From Escherichia coli (GTDB lineage Bacteria; Pseudomonadota; Gammaproteobacteria; Enterobacterales; Enterobacteriaceae): a stretch of DNA of 64,000 nucleotides. Of this stretch, positions 3,020-31,477 are shown piece after piece. Under the pieces are notes generated by a model. The model worked only from the letters and a program-made list of their open reading frames with translations. It ran no database searches and was not told the origin of the DNA. Position numbers and translations under genes: made by a program. The stretch lies in assembly GCF_003790525.1 (NCBI RefSeq), contig NZ_CP033635.1. One strand, written 5' to 3'. How positions within the stretch are numbered: the first letter of the stretch is position 1; every line of letters begins with the position of its first letter.

Positions 3020-3055
3020 TAAAAACAAAAACACCATTGCGCAGGCAATGGTGTT
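3020..3055 (-). terminator. Intrinsic terminator downstream of sra
   Basis: Perfect 11-bp stem aacaccattgc / gcaatggtgtt with 4-nt loop (3030..3055); on the minus strand it is followed by a T-rich run (complement of aaaaacaaaa at 3020..3029); lies about 30 bp past the sra stop. Confidence 0.7.
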
Positions 3056-3085
3056 TAATCGTCATTGAGGACTGATGGTTATGAA

Positions 3086-14775: not shown

Positions 14776-16095
14776 TTAACTGCCCCAACGACTTTGCAGA
14801 TAGCTGACCGCTTGTTGAGTCTGTGGCTTATTCAGATAGTCCTCACGGAACAAGATTGTGCCGCTAATTTCTGGCACGGCATCGTTAAGATCGAGCTGCT
14901 TTTTCAGTTCCGGTACGCCGCCGTTAATTATCCAGTCTGGCTCTATCTTTGAAGGTTCACCCACTTTATAGAAGGCGATACCGATATACAGGCGGGTCCT
15001 GGTCGGTTTAACGACATCCGCCCACCATTTTGCCAACACGTCATAACGCGCGGCACTCCGTGAGAATGGCCAGTAAATTTGGGGAGCAATGTAATCCAGC
15101 AACCCTTGTTCCACCCATCGACGGGTATCAGCGTAGGATTCGTCATAGGCTGCCGCGCCTCGGGTATCGGAACCGAGCGGATCGTGTGATCGGTTACGCC
15201 ACACGCCTGCCGGGCTAACGCCAAATTCGACTTCCGGCTTAATGCTTTTAATGGTGTGCGATACCTTCGCAATTAACTGCTGAGTATTGTTGCGCCGCCA
15301 GTCTGCTTTTGACGCAAATGCGCCGCCGTATTTGCGGTACGTTTCATTATCATTTAGCCGTGAACCTGGCGACTCAGTATAGAAATAGTCGTCAAACTGC
15401 ACGCCATCTACCGGATAGCGGGAAACCACTTCTGCAACTATTGATGTGATCCAGTCCTGAACCTCAGGTATGCCCGGGTCGAGGACAAAGCGATCGCCGG
15501 ACGTTCTGATCCAGTCGCGGTGTTGCACATAGACGCTCGCCGGTTGTTGAGACAGGGTGCTATTCAGTTCCCTGATAGTACCGGGCTTCGTATTAACCGA
15601 TACGCGATAGGGGTTAAACCAGACGTGTACTTTCATCCCACGCTTGTGGGCTTCGTCGAGCATGAATTGCAGCGGATCGTAACCCGGATTTTCACCAATC
15701 TTACCGGTCATAAGATCGGACCACGGCAAAATTTTCGATGGCCACAGGGCGGTACCGTCTGGCTTGACCTGGAAAAAGACCGTGTTTATGCCGAGACGTT
15801 GCAGATGATCCAGTTTGTCGATCATCGCCTGTTGTTGTACACGGGCCCGGCTGGTGGGGTTACTAATGTTAACCGAGGAAACCGGTGGCCAGTCGAGGCG
15901 AGACACCGTGGCCAGCCAGATGCCACGCATCGGTTGTGACGATTGTTGCGTCGTGGCTGGTGGCTTTGAACCCGCTGGTGGTGTCACCATGGACTCTGGA
16001 GGCGTGCTTTTACAACTACACAGTAAAAGTGCCAGTGCAACCAGTATCGCTGGTCTTCTAATCGCTAATTTCTCGTTTCGGGAGCAGATATCCAT
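14776..16095 (-). CDS. yddW: Outer-membrane lipoprotein, family 10 glycosyl-hydrolase-like (YddW)
   Basis: 439-aa ORF; lipoprotein signal with lipobox LLLCSC; length and sequence match recalled YddW. Confidence 0.9.
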   Translation of the reverse strand: MDICSRNEKLAIRRPAILVALALLLCSCKSTPPESMVTPPAGSKPPATTQQSSQPMRGIWLATVSRLDWPPVSSVNISNPTSRARVQQQAMIDKLDHLQRLGINTVFFQVKPDGTALWPSKILPWSDLMTGKIGENPGYDPLQFMLDEAHKRGMKVHVWFNPYRVSVNTKPGTIRELNSTLSQQPASVYVQHRDWIRTSGDRFVLDPGIPEVQDWITSIVAEVVSRYPVDGVQFDDYFYTESPGSRLNDNETYRKYGGAFASKADWRRNNTQQLIAKVSHTIKSIKPEVEFGVSPAGVWRNRSHDPLGSDTRGAAAYDESYADTRRWVEQGLLDYIAPQIYWPFSRSAARYDVLAKWWADVVKPTRTRLYIGIAFYKVGEPSKIEPDWIINGGVPELKKQLDLNDAVPEISGTILFREDYLNKPQTQQAVSYLQSRWGS

Positions 16096-16170
16096 ATGTG
16101 CTGGTTTCCGGTAAACAGATGTGCGCTCATTCTCGTACTTATCCCGGTTAAGTCAATACGACAGCAAGCA

Positions 16171-16200
16171 CGAAAAAGGGAGCGATGAATTATCGCTCCC
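16171..16200 (-). terminator. Intrinsic terminator downstream of gadC
   Basis: Stem gggagcgat / atcgctccc (16178..16200) with 5-nt loop; on the minus strand followed by a U-tract (complement of aaaaa at 16173..16177); about 25 bp past the gadC stop. Confidence 0.7.
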
Positions 16201-16225
16201 TTGTCTTATAACCATTCAGACATGG

Positions 16226-17761
16226 TTAGTGTTTCTTGTCATTCATCACAATATAGTGTGGTGAACGTGCACGCGGGTGCAGGAAGAAGTGACCTTTTGG
16301 TGCGTTCTGACTGTTGATTGGCTCCAGAGTAACGCCGGTATTCCCTTTGCCTTTACGATCATGAACAGCATAGAGAATAAAGGGCAGGGCAAGTACCACC
16401 AGGAAACTCACGACCAGTAATTCAACATACATATCGGTAGAGTCACCCTGGATGTTATCCGGCGGCAGGAAGGAAACAATAAACGCCATAATTGAAGTCA
16501 GCAGACCGACAATAGCCACGACCAGTTTCACCCCTTTACCACCAGGGATATTAAATGTGCGTTTTAAGTCAGGATGTTTAAGAACCAACACAATGTAGCC
16601 AATAAACAGCATGAAATAAGCACACAGATAAATCACCACCGTCAGTGCCAGTGCGATCAGGAAGGACATGTTGTTACCGCCACCGGTATTGGTGAGGATG
16701 ATCAACGCGATAGAAGTAATCACCAGCTGCGAAATGACCAGCGTTACCGGTACGCCATTTTTGTTCATTTTAGCGAATGCTGCTGGCAGCAGGTTTTTCT
16801 GCGCTGTGACATACATCCCGCGAGAAGGACCAACAATCCAGGAAGCGATTTCCGCCAGAACACCCAGCAACAGCAGTGCGGAGATCACGCGAACCGTCCA
16901 CTCAATTTCCGGTGCCACATGTGACATCAGAACGGTAAAGGTTTGCATTACCCCTGCGGAGAGGTTGATTTCATTACCCGGAATGACCATCGCAATAGAC
17001 AAACCGCCAACAGAGCTTAAGCAGATTGCCGCTACCATCAGCAGTAACATAGCCAGTGGATAGTCGCGCCCGGGGTTGCTCATTTCATTGACGTGGGTTG
17101 CGGAAGCTTCAACGCCCATATAACTCAAAATGAAGGCAACAAATACAACCAGGGTGCCCACTTTAGAGAAGTCAGGGAAGAAGGTCTTCGCATCCATTTC
17201 GATAGCAACGGGGGCACCGGAGTGCAGATAAATAGCCGCTAATGCGATCAAAATAAATGCAGGTAACAGGATACCGGCGAAGAAGCCAACTTTAGCAATG
17301 CGCGCCGTGTATTTCGTGCCACCAAACTGCGTTAATGCCAGCGCCCAAAGAATGATGAGTGCTGCAATAGTTTTGGTAATGGGGTCTTCATTCAGCGCTG
17401 GCCATTTCAGGATGTAGGAGAGTGCCCCTAACACGAAATAGAGCATCGGAATAAAACCAATGGCGATTTGCAGATAACCAAATGAGATCGCTGCAAATCC
17501 CCATCTCGGCCCCAAAGTATTTGATACCCAGGCGAAGACGCCACCTTCTTCCCAGCCGTCGACGGTAGCCATTTCCGCAGCACAAAGTCCCACGGGAATA
17601 AACCATAAAATCCCGCCTAATAGCAGGAAGAAGACTAATGAAAAGCCCGATGTTGCGAAGGTAGGGTATTCATAAACAGCCATTACCATCGATGCCGTTA
17701 TGGCAAAGAATCCGAGTAATGTGAGCTGCTTAGCTTTACCTGTCTGTACTGATGTAGCCAT
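16226..17761 (-). CDS. gadC: Glutamate:GABA antiporter GadC
   Basis: 511-aa [32 protein letters not shown]...; APC-family transporter; start at ATG 17759-17761. Confidence 0.95.
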
Positions 17762-17870
17762 ATTATCCCCCTAAAACGGTATTCCTGTCGGAACCGCACC
17801 TGTTTTGTTCTGAAGCGTATTCAGAACAATATTTTCCGTTGCTAATGCCAGTGAACAGACTTTGGAAATT

Positions 17871-17896
17871 GTCCCGAAACGGGTGTGTTTCGGGAC
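17871..17896 (-). terminator. Stem-loop in the gadB-gadC intergenic region (possible attenuator or 3' stabiliser)
   Basis: Perfect 10-bp stem gtcccgaaac / gtttcgggac with 6-nt loop; weak U-tract, so more likely partial termination or a processing/stability element than a strong terminator. Confidence 0.4.
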
Positions 17897-17916
17897 ACCG
17901 TTACCGTTAAACGTTA

Positions 17917-19317
17917 TCAGGTATGTTTAAAGCTGTTCTGCTGGGCAATACCCTGCAGTTTCGGGTGATCGCTGAGATATTTCAGGGAGGCTTTGTAGTC
18001 TTCCAGCAACAGTTCAGCAAAGTCCATTTCGAAGCCGCGACGACACATAATGCGCATCACCACGATGTCAGTGGCTTCACCGCCGAGAGTGAAGGCCGGA
18101 ACCTGCCAGCCGCGCAGACGCAGACGTTCAGAGAGGTCGTAGAGGGTGTATCCCGGATCTTCACCATCTTTCAGTTTGAAGCAAACCGCCGGGATGCCTT
18201 CGTCCGGGCGACCGGTACAGATAAACTCATACGGTCCCAGTTTGGCGATTTCATCCGCCAGATAAGCGGCAACCTGGTAGGAAGCGTTCTGTACTTTGGT
18301 ATAGCCTTCACGACCGAGGCGCAGGAATTCATAGTACTGTGCAATCACCTGACCCGCCGGGCGGGAGAAGTTGATGGCGAAAGTCCCAATCTGACCGCCG
18401 AGGTAGTCAACGTTGAACACCAGTTCCTGCGGCAGCGCTTCTTCATCACGCCAGATAACCCAGCCGCAGCCCAGCGGAGCCAGACCGAATTTATGGCCTG
18501 AAGCACTGATCGATTTCACACGCGGCAGGCGGAAGTCCCAGACGATATCCGGGGCGACGAACGGTGCCAGGAAGCCACCGCTGGCGGCGTCGATGTGCAT
18601 GTCGATGTCGATACCGGTGTCGGCCTGGAATTTATCCAGCGCATCGTGCAGCGGCTGCGGGAACTCATAGTTACCGGTGTAGGTCACGCCGAAAGTCGGC
18701 ACCACGCCGATGGTATTTTCGTCGCAGGCTTCAATCATGCGTTTCGGGTCCATAAACAACTGACCGGGGCGCATAGGGATCTCACGCAACTCCACATCCC
18801 AGTAGCGGGCGAATTTATGCCAGCAGATTTGCACCGGACCGCACACCAGGTTTGGTTTATCCGTTGGTTTGCCTGCAGCTTCCATACGCTTGCGCCAACG
18901 CCATTTCATCGCCATCCCGCCAAGCATACAGGCCTCGGAAGAACCAATGGTGTTGGTGCCAACGGCCTGACCATTTTTCGGCGCAGGCGCATGCCACAGA
19001 TCGGCAACCATGTTTACGCAACGCAGGTCGATGGCTGCGGATTGCGGATATTCTTCTTTGTCGATCCAGTTTTTGTTAATGGATAAATCCATCAACTTGT
19101 GGACGTTTTCGTCGTCCCAGGTCTGGCAGAAAGTGGCCAGGTTCTGACGAGCGTTGCCATCAAGATATAATTCGTCATTGATAATCTGAAATGCGACATC
19201 GTCGCGCATTTCGTGCAGCGGAAAACGTTTTGATTCTGCGATAGTGGAAATAGACTTTGCACCAAAACGTGAATCGAGTAGTTCCGACCTTAAATCCGTT
19301 ACTTGCTTCTTATCCAT
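17917..19317 (-). CDS. gadB: Glutamate decarboxylase beta
   Basis: ORF 17917..19386 trimmed to ATG at 19315-19317 giving [25 protein letters not shown] (466 aa); PLP-dependent decarboxylase ([10 protein letters not shown] lysine motif). Confidence 0.95.
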
Positions 19318-19396
19318 TTTAAACTCCTTAAAATGATTGGATCGCATTAAAAAAGTAGGATTTATCGATAAAGTAAGCAAGTGCAAAGGACTCGTG

Positions 19397-19416
19397 TTTA
19401 AATAACAAAATCCTAA
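19397..19416 (-). promoter_or_regulatory. gad box (GadE/GadX/GadW-responsive element) upstream of gadB
   Basis: Plus strand reads tttaaataacaaaatcctaa, the reverse complement of the recalled 20-bp gad box TTAGGATTTTGTTATTTAAA; sits about 80-100 bp upstream of the gadB ATG in an AT-rich region. Confidence 0.65.
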
Positions 19417-19678
19417 TGTTATTTATCGCGAGATATTATGCGAATTATATTTTATCATTGAAAATCAATATATTATTGAATTCTTGGGTGGTGGCAAGGT
19501 GTTTTATGCTGTTATTTTTATGCACTTTCTACGCCTCCTGAATTATCACGTAAAAATCAGACCTTAAAATATCACTATTAGCACTCGGCTATTATTTTGA
19601 ACGCATTTATAAAATTATTACATAAAAATGGCGAATATTGCTAAAATCCCCGCCAACGAGGTGTTGACGGGGCTGTTA

Positions 19679-22474
19679 TTATTTTGGCAATAATACTCCG
19701 GTATAGGTATTCACCGGATGAGAAAGATATTGTTTAACGGCAGTGTTAACATTCTCTACCGTCATTTGTTTCAATAATTGCTCCTGCTCAGTCCATGCTG
19801 CAGGATCGTCATATTGAATAAGACTATTTACAATGGTGTTCGCTAATTGTTGAACGCTACGCTGTTGGATATCGAGGCTGCGCTGAACGTTTTGCTGGTA
19901 TTCATTCAGTTCTTGCTCACTGATCCCTTTAGCCAGGCGCTTAACCATCACTTCATTCGCTAACGTTAACAGTTCATCATGTCGTTCTGGTTGACAAGTA
20001 AAAGCCAGCAAATGACTGATATCTTTGGCCTGAGGATCAACCGAGAGGCGAGAAGAAACGCTGTATGCTCCAGATGCCTGTTCACGAATATTAACGCGTA
20101 GATCTTTTGCCAGTGCGACGTTAAAAGCATCGAGCGCCATACGCGTCTCCAGATTTACAGGTGTCCGGGAATCATAACGCTTCCACTGTGAAACCTGTGC
20201 CACAGGTTCATTTTGTTCTTTTACAGTAACCGATGCGTTGTCCGTCGCGCGAGTTAATGGTTTACCTGCGGCTAATGGCGAATCAGAGTGTTTGATTGAT
20301 CCTAAGTAACGCGTAATTAACGCCACGAGTTTGTCTTCTGCGACATTACCGACAATGACAAAGGTGATATCCGCTGGAGATGAAAACAACTGGCGATCGG
20401 CAGCCAGCGCATCTGCGGCAGTAAACTGTGCAATCTGATTTTCTTGCAGTAATTTCGTGCGGTCATCAGCATAGCGCGTCTCATACATCTGCTGGGCGAA
20501 TTTCTCCGCTGGACGCTGGTCGAGCGTTTTCAACGCCTGAATTTGAGCATTTTGTAGCGATGCCCAAATATTATCGTTAATCGTGCTGTGGGTGATTCGC
20601 TGGTTAATCAACTGGAAACCAGGTTCAGGGTTATTAGTCCGCGCGCTAACAGAGAGCAATGTATTCATGCCACTGACTTTACTGCTCATGGTTACCGAGT
20701 TTTCCGCACTCCAGCGTTTCAGGCTGGAAGAGGAGAGTTCACCAACGCCGCTTCCGCTTACTGCTTTATTTGCCAGCGCGATAAGTGATTTTTGCTGCGC
20801 AGGGAAACTTAAATCGCCTTTATTAGATACGGCAGTAATTTGTAGCTTTTGCTCTTCACCCGCGGATTTTGCCAGAATAACCCTGGCACCATTGGAAAGT
20901 GTTAATGATGTCAGATTCTCAGCCAGCGTTTCTTTGCTGCTAATTTCCGCCTGTGGGTCAGCGTCTACTGTTAACGATAAATTTCTGCCTGGGAAGATGT
21001 AAGCCGCCAGCTTTTTGTTGGCGTACTCTTTTTCCAGCGCCAGGATAGCCGCAGGAGACAATGCTTTTTTGGCGGCAACCTCATTGTTTACCATTTGCTC
21101 CCAAAATGCGTCCTGGTTCTTTCTTAACTGCTGCCATTTTTCCGCCAGACTTTGCACGGTAATTTGCTGCCACAGACGTTTCGAAAGTTGATATGTCTCT
21201 TCCGGCGACAAGAACGGCGTATTATTTAATGAGCTGGATGCCAGGCGACTGGTCAGCATACGTAAATCACGCTCAGCTTGCTGATCAACCGCATTTTTCA
21301 GCCAGGTAAGGCGGGTAGATTTAACATCATCGAGTTCTTCAGCAGAAAAGCCATGCTGATCAATGGTTGCCAACTCTGCCATTAATGCATTCGCAGCATC
21401 CTGCATATTATCGTCTTGTGCATTTACACGGAAAAACAGCGACTGATAATCGGGTGCAATTTTGACGCTGCGCGCAGTGCCGCCAGAAATAGTCTTCAAC
21501 TCGCCCGACTGTATGCGTTCTTGCAGACGTTGGTTGAACAGCTGAACTAACATGCTCCATTCAGCTTGTTCGATAAAGCTTTGCTCATCGCTCACTTGCA
21601 CCATTGGCAGGCGATAATAGAGTGCGATGCCGTTCACCCGGTTTTCTTTATCATTGATGATATTAAAGCGCAGGTGGTTTTCGGCTTTTGTCGGCCAGAC
21701 GCGATTTTCAGCTGCTTTGTTAGCCGGAAGCTTACTTAAATTATCCTTTATCAGCGCCAGCGCTTCTTTACTGTCGATATCGCCGACCACAATAAAGGTC
21801 ATATTATTTGGTTGATACCAGCGTTGATAAAATTGGCGCAATTGTGCCGGTGTGACCGTGGCGACGGTATCCATCAGGCCGATAGGTTCACGGTCTAAAT
21901 TACGGGTATTTGCCAGCAGGAAAGGGCGGCGCGCCTGAGAGGTGCGCCATTTTGCATCCTGATGGGCACGCCATTCCTCAGTAATTACGCCACGTTCAGC
22001 GTCTACTTCGAGTTTTTCAAAGGTTGCGGCATTACTCCATTCACTGAAGATTGCCATCACTTGTTGCAGATTTTGTTTCTGCGTAGTCGGCAAACTCACC
22101 TGATACACTGTTTCGTCATAGCTGGTATAGGCATTAACATCGCGACCAAAACGAAGGCCCATTGACTCAAATGTTTCGATGACTTTATTACCCGGCCATG
22201 TTTTTGTGCCGTTAAACATCATATGTTCTACAAAATGAGCCACGCCGCGCTCATTGTCCTCTTCCTGCAATGAACCGGTATGAATTTGCAGCCATAAATT
22301 TACCTGATCCTTTGGTTGAGCATGCGGATAAATCAGATATCGCAAGCCATTGTCCAGTTGCCCGGTAATTAACTTTTCATCCTGCGGTAAGGCGGCGGCA
22401 ATCAGTCGCCCGGGGAGCAACAGAGTTGCCACTAACGTCAGTAAGAAACAGAGGTTTCTCATAATTATCTCCAT
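19679..22474 (-). CDS. pqqL: Periplasmic M16-family zinc metalloprotease PqqL
   Basis: 931-aa ORF with signal peptide; HFVEH inverted zinc-binding motif (HxxEH) near the N-terminus; tandem M16 peptidase domains. Confidence 0.9.
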   Translation of the reverse strand: MEIIMRNLCFLLTLVATLLLPGRLIAAALPQDEKLITGQLDNGLRYLIYPHAQPKDQVNLWLQIHTGSLQEEDNERGVAHFVEHMMFNGTKTWPGNKVIETFESMGLRFGRDVNAYTSYDETVYQVSLPTTQKQNLQQVMAIFSEWSNAATFEKLEVDAERGVITEEWRAHQDAKWRTSQARRPFLLANTRNLDREPIGLMDTVATVTPAQLRQFYQRWYQPNNMTFIVVGDIDSKEALALIKDNLSKLPANKAAENRVWPTKAENHLRFNIINDKENRVNGIALYYRLPMVQVSDEQSFIEQAEWSMLVQLFNQRLQERIQSGELKTISGGTARSVKIAPDYQSLFFRVNAQDDNMQDAANALMAELATIDQHGFSAEELDDVKSTRLTWLKNAVDQQAERDLRMLTSRLASSSLNNTPFLSPEETYQLSKRLWQQITVQSLAEKWQQLRKNQDAFWEQMVNNEVAAKKALSPAAILALEKEYANKKLAAYIFPGRNLSLTVDADPQAEISSKETLAENLTSLTLSNGARVILAKSAGEEQKLQITAVSNKGDLSFPAQQKSLIALANKAVSGSGVGELSSSSLKRWSAENSVTMSSKVSGMNTLLSVSARTNNPEPGFQLINQRITHSTINDNIWASLQNAQIQALKTLDQRPAEKFAQQMYETRYADDRTKLLQENQIAQFTAADALAADRQLFSSPADITFVIVGNVAEDKLVALITRYLGSIKHSDSPLAAGKPLTRATDNASVTVKEQNEPVAQVSQWKRYDSRTPVNLETRMALDAFNVALAKDLRVNIREQASGAYSVSSRLSVDPQAKDISHLLAFTCQPERHDELLTLANEVMVKRLAKGISEQELNEYQQNVQRSLDIQQRSVQQLANTIVNSLIQYDDPAAWTEQEQLLKQMTVENVNTAVKQYLSHPVNTYTGVLLPK

Positions 22475-31359: not shown

Positions 31360-31477
31360 GAGGTTTATATCTTATAGTGTGTAGTTTAATTTAATCCATG
31401 TGAGCAAATTGCGCGATAATAGTCAATGAGGAATTCTTCTGCTGTGCGGATGACAGCAGAAGAAATGAGGAGGCGAA

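Follow-up and report, generated by a model that had tools for sequence, protein, structure and literature searches.

A hairpin without a U-tract between gadB and gadC of Escherichia coli: a probable target of selection and possible 3′ decay barrier

In the stretch of E. coli DNA analyzed here (64,000 nucleotides, hereafter the window), the gadBC operon carries its known control elements, and the 155-nt spacer between its two genes contains a hairpin (hairpin 1) that is real and nonrandom. This acid-resistance operon, together with the GAD box and the regulators, belongs to textbook E. coli biology and is already known. We give about a 50% probability to the reading that gadBC is governed by these elements and that hairpin 1 serves mainly as a malE-malF-like barrier to 3′ decay, perhaps alongside weak termination. 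The mechanism by which hairpin 1 acts is one that we infer.

The window contains the E. coli genes pqqL, gadB, and gadC, all on the minus strand, as judged from the positions of the open reading frames and from the identity and annotation of matching E. coli chromosomes; positions 17600-19800 match several E. coli chromosomes at 100% identity, with the annotation pqqL / gadB / gadC. The genes and their boundaries are as follows (the pqqL hairpin and the gadC translation start were assigned by sequence).

19679..22474, minus strand: pqqL, from its open reading frame and the annotation of identical chromosomes.
19648..19672, minus strand: terminator-like hairpin of pqqL, CCCCGUCAAC-ACCUC-GUUGGCGGGG, then AUUUUAG.
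17917..19317, minus strand: gadB, glutamate decarboxylase B, 466 aa.
17759..17771, minus strand: gadC translation start, with Shine-Dalgarno GGGGGA at 17766..17771 and ATG at 17759..17761.
16226..17761, minus strand: gadC, glutamate/GABA antiporter, 511 aa.
16171..16202, minus strand: canonical intrinsic terminator after gadC (operon end), GGGAGCGAU-AAUUC-AUCGCUCCC, then UUUUUCGU.

The terminator-like hairpin that begins 6 nt past the pqqL stop codon (dG −18.6 kcal/mol, z −4.4) separates pqqL from the gadB promoter. At the other end, the gadC terminator (dG −18.1, z −5.2) has a score of +19, above threshold, by a d'Aubenton-Carafa-type formula. gadC is translated from a start of its own, uncoupled from gadB across the 155 nt, and its Shine-Dalgarno/ATG region is predicted by folding to be mostly unpaired in the E. 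coli alleles.

Three features lie upstream of the gadB coding sequence.

19545..19564, minus strand: candidate GadX/GadW site, AGGTCTGATTTTTACGTGAT, matching the published motif at 16/20 positions, the best match in the spacer.
19397..19416, minus strand: GAD box, TTAGGATTTTGTTATTTAAA, a 20/20 match, the main activator site of gadBC and, per the literature, a GadE/RcsB heterodimer site.
19318..19356, minus strand: end of the core promoter and short gadB leader, with a −10-like TACTTT at 19351..19356, Shine-Dalgarno AAGGAG, and GGA motifs.

An earlier note on this DNA had placed a 20-bp gad box 80-100 bp upstream of gadB, and we found exactly this element, identical to the published GadE/RcsB site in its 20-bp sequence (PMC4918353, PMC2887963), 80-99 bp upstream of the gadB ATG (19317). 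GadE together with RcsB has been demonstrated to bind and activate at the GAD box of gadA (PMC2887963). The box was the sole match in 64 kb even with three mismatches allowed, and 0/100 shuffles matched. Reportedly, it is the GadE/RcsB activator site of both gadA and gadBC (Castanie-Cornet & Foster 2001; Ma et al. 2003). The same sequence occurs in K-12 at gadB and gadA, and from the GAD box through the gadB ATG there are no differences from K-12, spacing included; it is the same element as the published gadA/gadBC box, in another E. coli strain, with nothing different about it. In published work on gadA and gadBC, the center of the box lies about 63 bp before the site where transcription begins (PMC2887963; Castanie-Cornet et al. 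2010). Applied to the center here (19406.5), this published spacing (PMC2887963) would put the gadB start near 19344, just downstream of TACTTT, and would give an mRNA leader of ~27 nt. The spacer between pqqL and gadB had been described in the earlier note as a 360-bp AT-rich leader; its length (361 bp) and composition (GC 31.9% vs 47.9% for the window) agree with this description, but the name does not, since these 361 bp comprise the promoter, regulatory DNA, and the terminator of pqqL and are not mRNA leader. The candidate GadX/GadW site, found by comparison with a binding motif quoted from PMC4918353, lies about 200-220 bp upstream of the predicted start. CsrA binds the gadB leader at its GGA motifs and represses it (PMC11210196). 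In the picture established by the literature, the GadE/RcsB heterodimer bound at the GAD box activates transcription, which would start ~27 nt ahead of the gadB start codon; GadX/GadW and H-NS act further upstream, in the AT-rich spacer; and translation from the short leader is repressed by CsrA. To these promoter and leader steps, the present analysis contributes sequence identity only.

The hairpin of interest lies directly downstream of gadB.

17870..17897, minus strand: hairpin 1, an 11-bp stem with a 6-nt loop and no U-tract, proposed as the 3′ end-forming, stabilizing structure of a gadB-only mRNA.

The perfect 10-bp hairpin without a strong U-tract that had been noticed at 17871..17896 was recovered as the core of this structure, GUCCCGAAAC-ACACCC-GUUUCGGGAC, and a flanking U:A pair extends it to 11 pairs, 6 of them G:C. 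Hairpin 1 starts 20 nt past the gadB stop codon; its K-12 counterpart occupies 1,570,598-1,570,625 on the minus strand. Its predicted free energy is −17.7 kcal/mol by itself and −20.2 when folded within 44 nt of sequence (z = −4.2; 0/200 shuffles folded as well). Its tail, AUUUCCAA, has 3 U in the next 8 nt; it is absent from the calls of a consensus terminator scan, and its d'Aubenton-Carafa-type score is −28.6, below threshold. Only five distinct hairpins with a perfect stem of 10 bp or more and a loop of 3-8 nt occur in the whole window, compared with a shuffle mean of 0.5, and two of the five fall within the 155-nt gadB-gadC spacer. We found no match to Rfam 15 covariance models up to E = 1 on either strand of 15900-20000, which rules out a known RNA family. 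The spacer occupies a median of one place per genome (5407/5426 E. coli genomes), and this single copy rules out a repeated or mobile element, including a REP/BIME or other repeated palindrome, which would be present in many copies per genome. In the full-text and supplement literature searched, we met no description of hairpin 1 and no report of 3′-end data for gadB versus gadC. Both genes are missing from the supplementary tables of two E. coli 3′-end or decay studies, whose cultures may not express the operon and whose tables are possibly incomplete.

Hairpin 1 looks selected as a stem, whereas its sequence does not: variation within E. coli is confined to the loop, and the stem in Escherichia albertii carries compensatory changes. 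All E. coli polymorphisms sampled in the 155-nt spacer fall in the loop of hairpin 1, with four alleles that differ solely at loop positions 31, 32, and 34, and the stem is identical in 9/9 E. coli genome sequences read; these nine represent the four spacer-identity classes among the matches listed in a search of 5,426 genomes. Conservation within E. coli is by itself uninformative as evidence of constraint, given a third-position divergence between the window and K-12 of only ~2% near the spacer. E69-type sequences replace an A:U pair in the stem by G:U. In E. albertii, 15/30 positions of hairpin 1 are changed, compared with 12/134 in the remaining spacer (P = 1e-6), and 9/11 stem pairs are nonetheless kept, three of them via compensatory changes. 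Hairpin 1 is the sole helix of the spacer with such changes. Across seven haplotypes, 97% of hairpin 1 cells are paired, with three compensatory pairs and two G.U changes; in shuffles of the seven sequences, 26/500 reached the observed count of compensatory pairs and 6/500 the covariation score, all three pairs coming from a single lineage (E. albertii), in which they may represent few events. Further afield, unrelated but significantly stable hairpins without a U-tract lie 3′ of gadB in Hafnia, Yersinia ruckeri, Serratia sp. Ag1, and Mesopusillimonas (z −2.1 to −6.1). It is not the case that every gadB-antiporter operon has such a hairpin: in most Yersinia and in GC-rich genomes, the spacer structure is at shuffle level, and such operons can therefore do without one.

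In E. coli operons with a selectively stabilized 5′ gene, 76% of stable 3′ ends lie just past a strong hairpin without a U-tract, and such hairpins after the 5′ gene act as 3′ decay barriers and not as terminators (PMC5927463). By the features used there to recognize a protective 3′ hairpin, hairpin 1 is stable, lacks a U-tract, sits at the 3′ boundary of gadB outside the range of a terminating ribosome, and is conserved in structure across species, the compensatory changes coming from one lineage. With malE-malF and the other protective intercistronic hairpins (Dar & Sorek 2018, PMC5927463), it shares a stable, U-tract-less hairpin after a first gene encoding an abundant soluble protein and before a gene encoding a membrane protein, as well as structure conserved between species. 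It differs from the cases in that survey in being single copy per genome and no REP element, and it lies in the spacer, whereas most of the surveyed cases lie inside the downstream coding region.

A single transcript carries gadB and gadC and ends at the U-tract terminator 3′ of gadC. On the decay-barrier model, hairpin 1, 20 nt past the gadB stop codon and outside the reach of a terminating ribosome, would act mainly to block 3′-to-5′ exonucleases; once the poorly protected gadC portion had been cut, degradation would halt at hairpin 1 and leave a stable gadB-only message, while a small share of RNA polymerases may likewise halt at this point. The decarboxylase, which is soluble and abundant, would thus be served by more mRNA than the membrane antiporter, with both genes still answering to the same promoter. 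That hairpin 1 causes gadB mRNA to exceed gadBC mRNA is plausible, and the preservation of its stem in evolution, described above, lends the idea support. Fold induction is equal for gadB and gadC (2.23 vs 2.18; in a second data set, 3.1 vs 3.4), as expected if the ratio between them is constant and set after initiation. RNase E consensus motifs (RNWUU) are not enriched downstream of hairpin 1 (P = 0.59). Substrates of RNase III need a longer stem, and at 11-12 bp, that of hairpin 1 is too short to be an RNase III site. Rho loading on the spacer was likewise rejected, the spacer being highly structured and not rut-like (33 C vs 36 G). The paralogue gadA, about 98% identical to gadB and located in the acid fitness island with its gadA and gadAX transcripts, also precedes a strong hairpin without a U-tract (15 bp, dG −28 kcal/mol), followed by the partly cotranscribed gadX. 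The two hairpins are unrelated in sequence, homology between gadA and gadB ending 4 nt past the stop codon, and gadX is induced more weakly than gadA (1.03 vs 2.03), unlike the equal induction of gadB and gadC.

Partial Rho-independent termination, in which some polymerases are released at hairpin 1 despite its weak AUUUCC tail while the rest read into gadC, was the mechanism put forward in the earlier note, and we consider it unlikely, although a serious candidate. With its 11-12 bp, the GC-rich stem (dG −17.7 to −20 kcal/mol) equals the gadC and pqqL terminators in stability, three U follow it directly, and, like the gadC terminator (16171-16202), it stands soon after a stop codon; moreover, termination would yield gadB in excess over gadC just as a decay barrier would, and the two models are not exclusive. 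The sequence does not favor it, however. Hairpin 1 is followed by no U run, with merely 3 U in 8 nt, it drew no call from the consensus scan, its score is far below that of the gadC terminator (−28.6 vs +19), and the gene downstream of it is known to be cotranscribed. U-less hairpins internal to operons are reported not to be terminators in E. coli (PMC5927463), and the tail is weaker still in E. albertii and E69 (AAACUCC and AAAUUCC, respectively). It is distinctly improbable that hairpin 1 is instead a functionless relic, such as what is left of the terminator of a once monocistronic gadB, its U-tract having gone when gadC was added. The closest relatives of the two genes do differ: in Hafnia and Yersinia, identity is 81-89% for GadB and about 33% between GadC and the antiporter encoded downstream, while in Mesopusillimonas GadC is 71% and GadB 60% identical; such differing relatives are compatible with an assembled operon, and gadA also has its own hairpin past the stop codon. 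A relic would decay, however, and the stem is unchanged in all nine E. coli sequences while the loop varies, and in E. albertii the stem was rebuilt by compensatory changes with half of the positions changed; this maintenance counts against a relic.

The remainder of the spacer has features of its own, of which the first two had been overlooked in the earlier note.

17839..17862, minus strand: spacer stretch of 24 nt, AAGUCUGUUCACUGGCAUUAGCAA, invariant from E. coli to E. albertii.
17805..17829, minus strand: hairpin 2, UUGUUCUGAA-UACGC-UUCAGAACAA, a perfect 10-bp AU-rich stem (dG −10.9, z −3.75).
17776..17797, minus strand: hairpin 3, GCGGUUCC-GACA-GGA..ACCGU, predicted, just upstream of the gadC ribosome-binding site.

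A search with the exact 24-mer retrieved 14 metagenome contigs. Hairpin 2 is conserved in sequence and shows no covariation, and the pairs of hairpin 3 are invariant across the seven haplotypes, save one pair broken in one haplotype. Hairpin 2 was rejected as an antisense terminator: it is terminator-like on the plus strand, yet the scan lists no plus-strand promoter-like site in the ~1.8 kb upstream (16000-17805). That the whole 155-nt spacer is an undescribed cis-regulatory RNA, setting gadC translation or bound by a factor and with hairpin 1 as one module, seems to us improbable; it might work through pairing of the 24-nt stretch with gadC codons 2-7 or through the binding of a small RNA or protein. 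Outside hairpin 1, the spacer is about three times more conserved than neighboring 4-fold degenerate sites (divergence of 9% vs 26% in E. albertii and 6% vs 23% in E69; P = 0.002-0.02), although conservation of 5′ untranslated regions is common and unspecific. The spacer also holds the invariant stretch and folds better than shuffles (z = −3.8), but it has no Rfam match. The predicted probabilities of base pairing between the invariant stretch and codons 2-7 of gadC are 0.7-0.99, and the single synonymous change seen in these codons retains a U.G pair; against this, the duplex (−16.9 kcal/mol) barely beats shuffles (P of about 0.03-0.09), stronger partners exist elsewhere in the mRNA, and both sides are invariant and hence show no covariation. 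Sequestration of the Shine-Dalgarno sequence, by pairing of AUUUCC with the gadC GGGGGA in the 155-nt fold, was rejected and also counts against this explanation: it falls to a probability of about 0.2-0.3 once 45 nt of gadC are included, and the partner varies by species. Were the spacer cis-regulatory, GadC synthesis would be tuned independently of GadB, and hairpin 1 would insulate a stable gadB message from a regulated gadC message.

Hairpin 1 would be at most another intercistronic stabilizer or attenuator, and these results matter little beyond confirmation, their modest addition being that the gadB-gadC hairpin behaves as a selected RNA structure. If hairpin 1 acts mainly as a decay barrier, gadBC would be a reasonable extra example of an enzyme-over-transporter stoichiometry set after transcription initiation, which may be of use in engineering gadBC for GABA production and in modeling the dosage of acid resistance.

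The minus strand of 14.7-22.5 kb carries pqqL, gadB, gadC and an ORF of digH/yddW size, and the gene arrangement is the same in K-12 MG1655. The 2.2 kb around gadB match several E. coli chromosomes at 100% identity, and this region was found in 5425 of the 5426 complete E. coli genomes, where the annotation reads gadB, gadC and pqqL. De Biase et al. reportedly found in 1999 that gadB and gadC are co-transcribed. The features of the locus are as follows.

19679..22474, minus strand: pqqL ORF
19648..19672, pqqL-gadB spacer: terminator-like hairpin followed by AUUUUAG, beginning 6 nt past the pqqL stop codon
19545..19564, pqqL-gadB spacer: GadX/GadW motif by sequence match (16/20 to the published motif)
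17917..19317, minus strand: gadB ORF
17871..17896 (17870..17897 with a flanking U:A pair), minus strand: hairpin 1, GUCCCGAAAC-ACACCC-GUUUCGGGAC
gadB-gadC spacer, predicted fold: single-stranded stretch
17805..17829, minus strand: hairpin 2, perfect 10 bp, UUGUUCUGAA-UACGC-UUCAGAACAA (dG -10.9, z = -3.75)
17776..17797, minus strand: hairpin 3, small
3' part of the gadB-gadC spacer: gadC ribosome-binding site, GGGGGA-N4-AUG
16226..17761, minus strand: gadC ORF

The 20-mer TTAGGATTTTGTTATTTAAA, the GadE site as published (PMC4918353), has a single match in the window, at 19397..19416 on the minus strand and 80-99 bp before the gadB ATG, in agreement with the earlier note, which had placed a gad box 80-100 bp upstream; no further match was found in the window even at three mismatches, and none in 100 shuffles. 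From this GAD box to the gadB ATG the window is identical to K-12, in which gadA is preceded by an identical box. With its distance unchanged, the box is retained at 20/20 or 19/20 upstream of both E. albertii gad genes and in a divergent E. coli lineage; in Hafnia, Yersinia, Serratia, Edwardsiella and Mesopusillimonas, matches do not exceed chance (<=14/20). The AT-rich region of about 360 bp described upstream of gadB was borne out (361 bp between pqqL and gadB, at 31.9% GC vs 47.9% in the window), but its designation as a leader was not. Placed from the GAD box centre (19406.5), the gadB start site probably lies near 19344, directly past a -10-like TACTTT; the mRNA leader would then be ~27 nt, and the 361 bp would therefore be regulatory DNA. 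CsrA binds the gadB leader and represses gadB translation (PMC11210196). The operon and its GAD box are already known, and nothing in the upstream control region is new.

The 155-nt gadB-gadC spacer folds at -48.6 kcal/mol, better than shuffled sequences (z = -3.8). The 64 kb hold only five distinct perfect hairpins with a stem of 10 bp or more (shuffle mean count, 0.5), two of them in this spacer and a third being the gadC terminator. Hairpin 1 starts 20 nt past the gadB stop codon and folds at -17.7 kcal/mol by itself and at -20.2 kcal/mol within 44 nt of context (z = -4.2). It had been correctly described as a perfect 10-bp hairpin at 17871..17896 without a strong U-tract: its tail is AUUUCCAA, and it went uncalled in a terminator scan requiring 5 T in 8. 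Hairpin 2, the second perfect hairpin of the spacer, had been missed; on the plus strand, with TATTTTCC after it, it was flagged as terminator-like. The remaining two perfect hairpins are both intergenic. On the minus strand, the one at 3029-3056 ends in a U-rich tail and is likely a terminator; the one at 31434-31464 lies 14 nt past the stop of a 759-aa ORF (YdeP size), with a 253-aa ORF (YdeO size) farther on, and by the size of these ORFs more acid-resistance genes seem to lie ~12 kb from gadBC.

Of 5426 E. coli genomes, 5407 have just one copy of the spacer, which rules it out as a repeated element, and Rfam returned no match to it. The gadA-gadB homology ends four bases past the stop codon, so the spacer hairpins are gadB-specific. 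Of the 5408 spacer matches, 5 were on plasmid-typed records of complete E. coli assemblies.

The earlier note had read hairpin 1 as a site of partial termination, giving more gadB than gadBC transcript. That outcome is plausible, but a decay barrier is a likelier cause than an intrinsic terminator: by a d'Aubenton-Carafa-type formula, whose values here are rough, hairpin 1 scored -28.6 and hairpin 2 -76.5, and the core of the gadC U-tract terminator scored +19. In composition (33 C vs 36 G) and in its strong structure, the spacer is not rut-like. Among E. coli operons with a selectively stabilized 5' gene, of which malE-malF is the classic case, 76% have a stable 3' end directly after an energetically stable hairpin, and these hairpins have no U-tract behind them, are not Rho sites and are mostly conserved between species (Dar and Sorek; PMC5927463). 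Hairpin 1 matches this description, and at 20 nt past the stop codon it should not be melted by the terminating ribosome. Its fit to those hairpins, its distance past the stop and the non-rut-like spacer lead us to prefer hairpin 1 as a putative barrier to 3' exonucleases, with weak termination a possible minor contributor; either mechanism would leave gadB above gadC. In published arrays and RNA-seq, the fold induction of gadB and gadC was equal (2.23 vs 2.18; 3.1 vs 3.4), which fits a single promoter with a fixed post-initiation ratio and is uninformative on the value of that ratio. The literature searched yielded neither 3'-end nor half-life data for gadBC. Northern probes for gadA and gadB cross-hybridize, making a short band hard to read.

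We assembled seven distinct spacer haplotypes; the sources were K-12, ST131, E69 (a divergent E. coli), E. albertii, Escherichia sp. E1V33 and a metagenome contig. The sample from E. coli proper includes six genomes spaced evenly along the ranking of the 5408 matches; all spacer differences in this sample lie in the hairpin 1 loop (spacer positions 31, 32 and 34), and the loop alleles at window 17881-17886 form a stepwise series, ACACCC, GCACCC, GAACCC and GAAGCC. The window allele alone cannot close an extra G:C pair and so has a 6-nt loop, the others having a tetraloop. Since the window and K-12 differ by only ~2% at synonymous sites near the spacer, this loop-only variation is weak evidence by itself, and the deeper comparisons weigh more. 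In E69-type sequences one hairpin 1 pair changes from A:U to G:U. In E. albertii, 15 of 30 hairpin positions differ from the window vs 12 of 134 in the remaining spacer (p = 1e-6); the hairpin still forms, as GCCCCGGG...CCCGGGGC, and in three pairs both bases have been replaced (U:A by C:G once, A:U by G:C twice). Compensatory changes occur only in the hairpin 1 helix and all come from one lineage; among shuffle controls on the seven sequences, 26/500 reached the observed compensatory pairs and 6/500 the covariation score, which is only moderately convincing. Hairpin 2 is conserved in sequence, without covariation, and in three haplotypes it lacks outer pairs; there is essentially no variation in hairpin 3.

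The spacer outside hairpin 1 is itself about three times more conserved than adjacent four-fold degenerate sites, with differences from the window of 12/134 vs 12/47 in E. albertii (p 0.01), 8/134 vs 11/48 in E69 (p 0.002) and 10/134 vs 7/30 in E1V33 (p 0.02). A 24-nt stretch, AAGTCTGTTCACTGGCATTAGCAA (17839..17862, minus strand), is unchanged all the way from E. coli to E. albertii, where adjacent synonymous sites differ by ~25%. It is predicted to pair with gadC codons 2-7, an attractive idea whose statistical support is weak. Neither Shine-Dalgarno sequestration by the spacer nor enrichment of RNase E motifs in it was supported.

In a comparison of 26 gadB-antiporter loci whose spacers reach 60 nt or more, spacer-fold z was -3.2 to -3.5 in three of four Escherichia sequences and -1.8 in E. 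albertii, -3.0 in Hafnia paralvei, -4.5 in Yersinia ruckeri, -6.1 in Mesopusillimonas and -2.1 in Serratia sp. Ag1; among these loci, structure was not beyond chance in most other Yersinia species and in GC-rich genomes. Several lineages have a gadB-antiporter spacer of just 15-40 nt. The nearest relatives of gadB and gadC differ: GadB of Hafnia and Yersinia is 81-89% identical to that of E. coli and their downstream antiporter ~33% identical to E. coli GadC, and in Mesopusillimonas GadC is 71% and GadB 60% identical. By these identities, the two genes of the E. coli operon may have been brought together from two sources. Where spacer structure is significant, the decarboxylase gene is followed by an unrelated, strong hairpin without a U-tract, and K-12 gadA has its own 15-bp hairpin (dG -28 kcal/mol, z = -7.1), unrelated to that of gadB, before the partly co-transcribed gadX. 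Structured spacers being present in some lineages and absent in others, the design is recurrent, not obligatory, and hairpin 1 would at most add a further case to a known class of elements.
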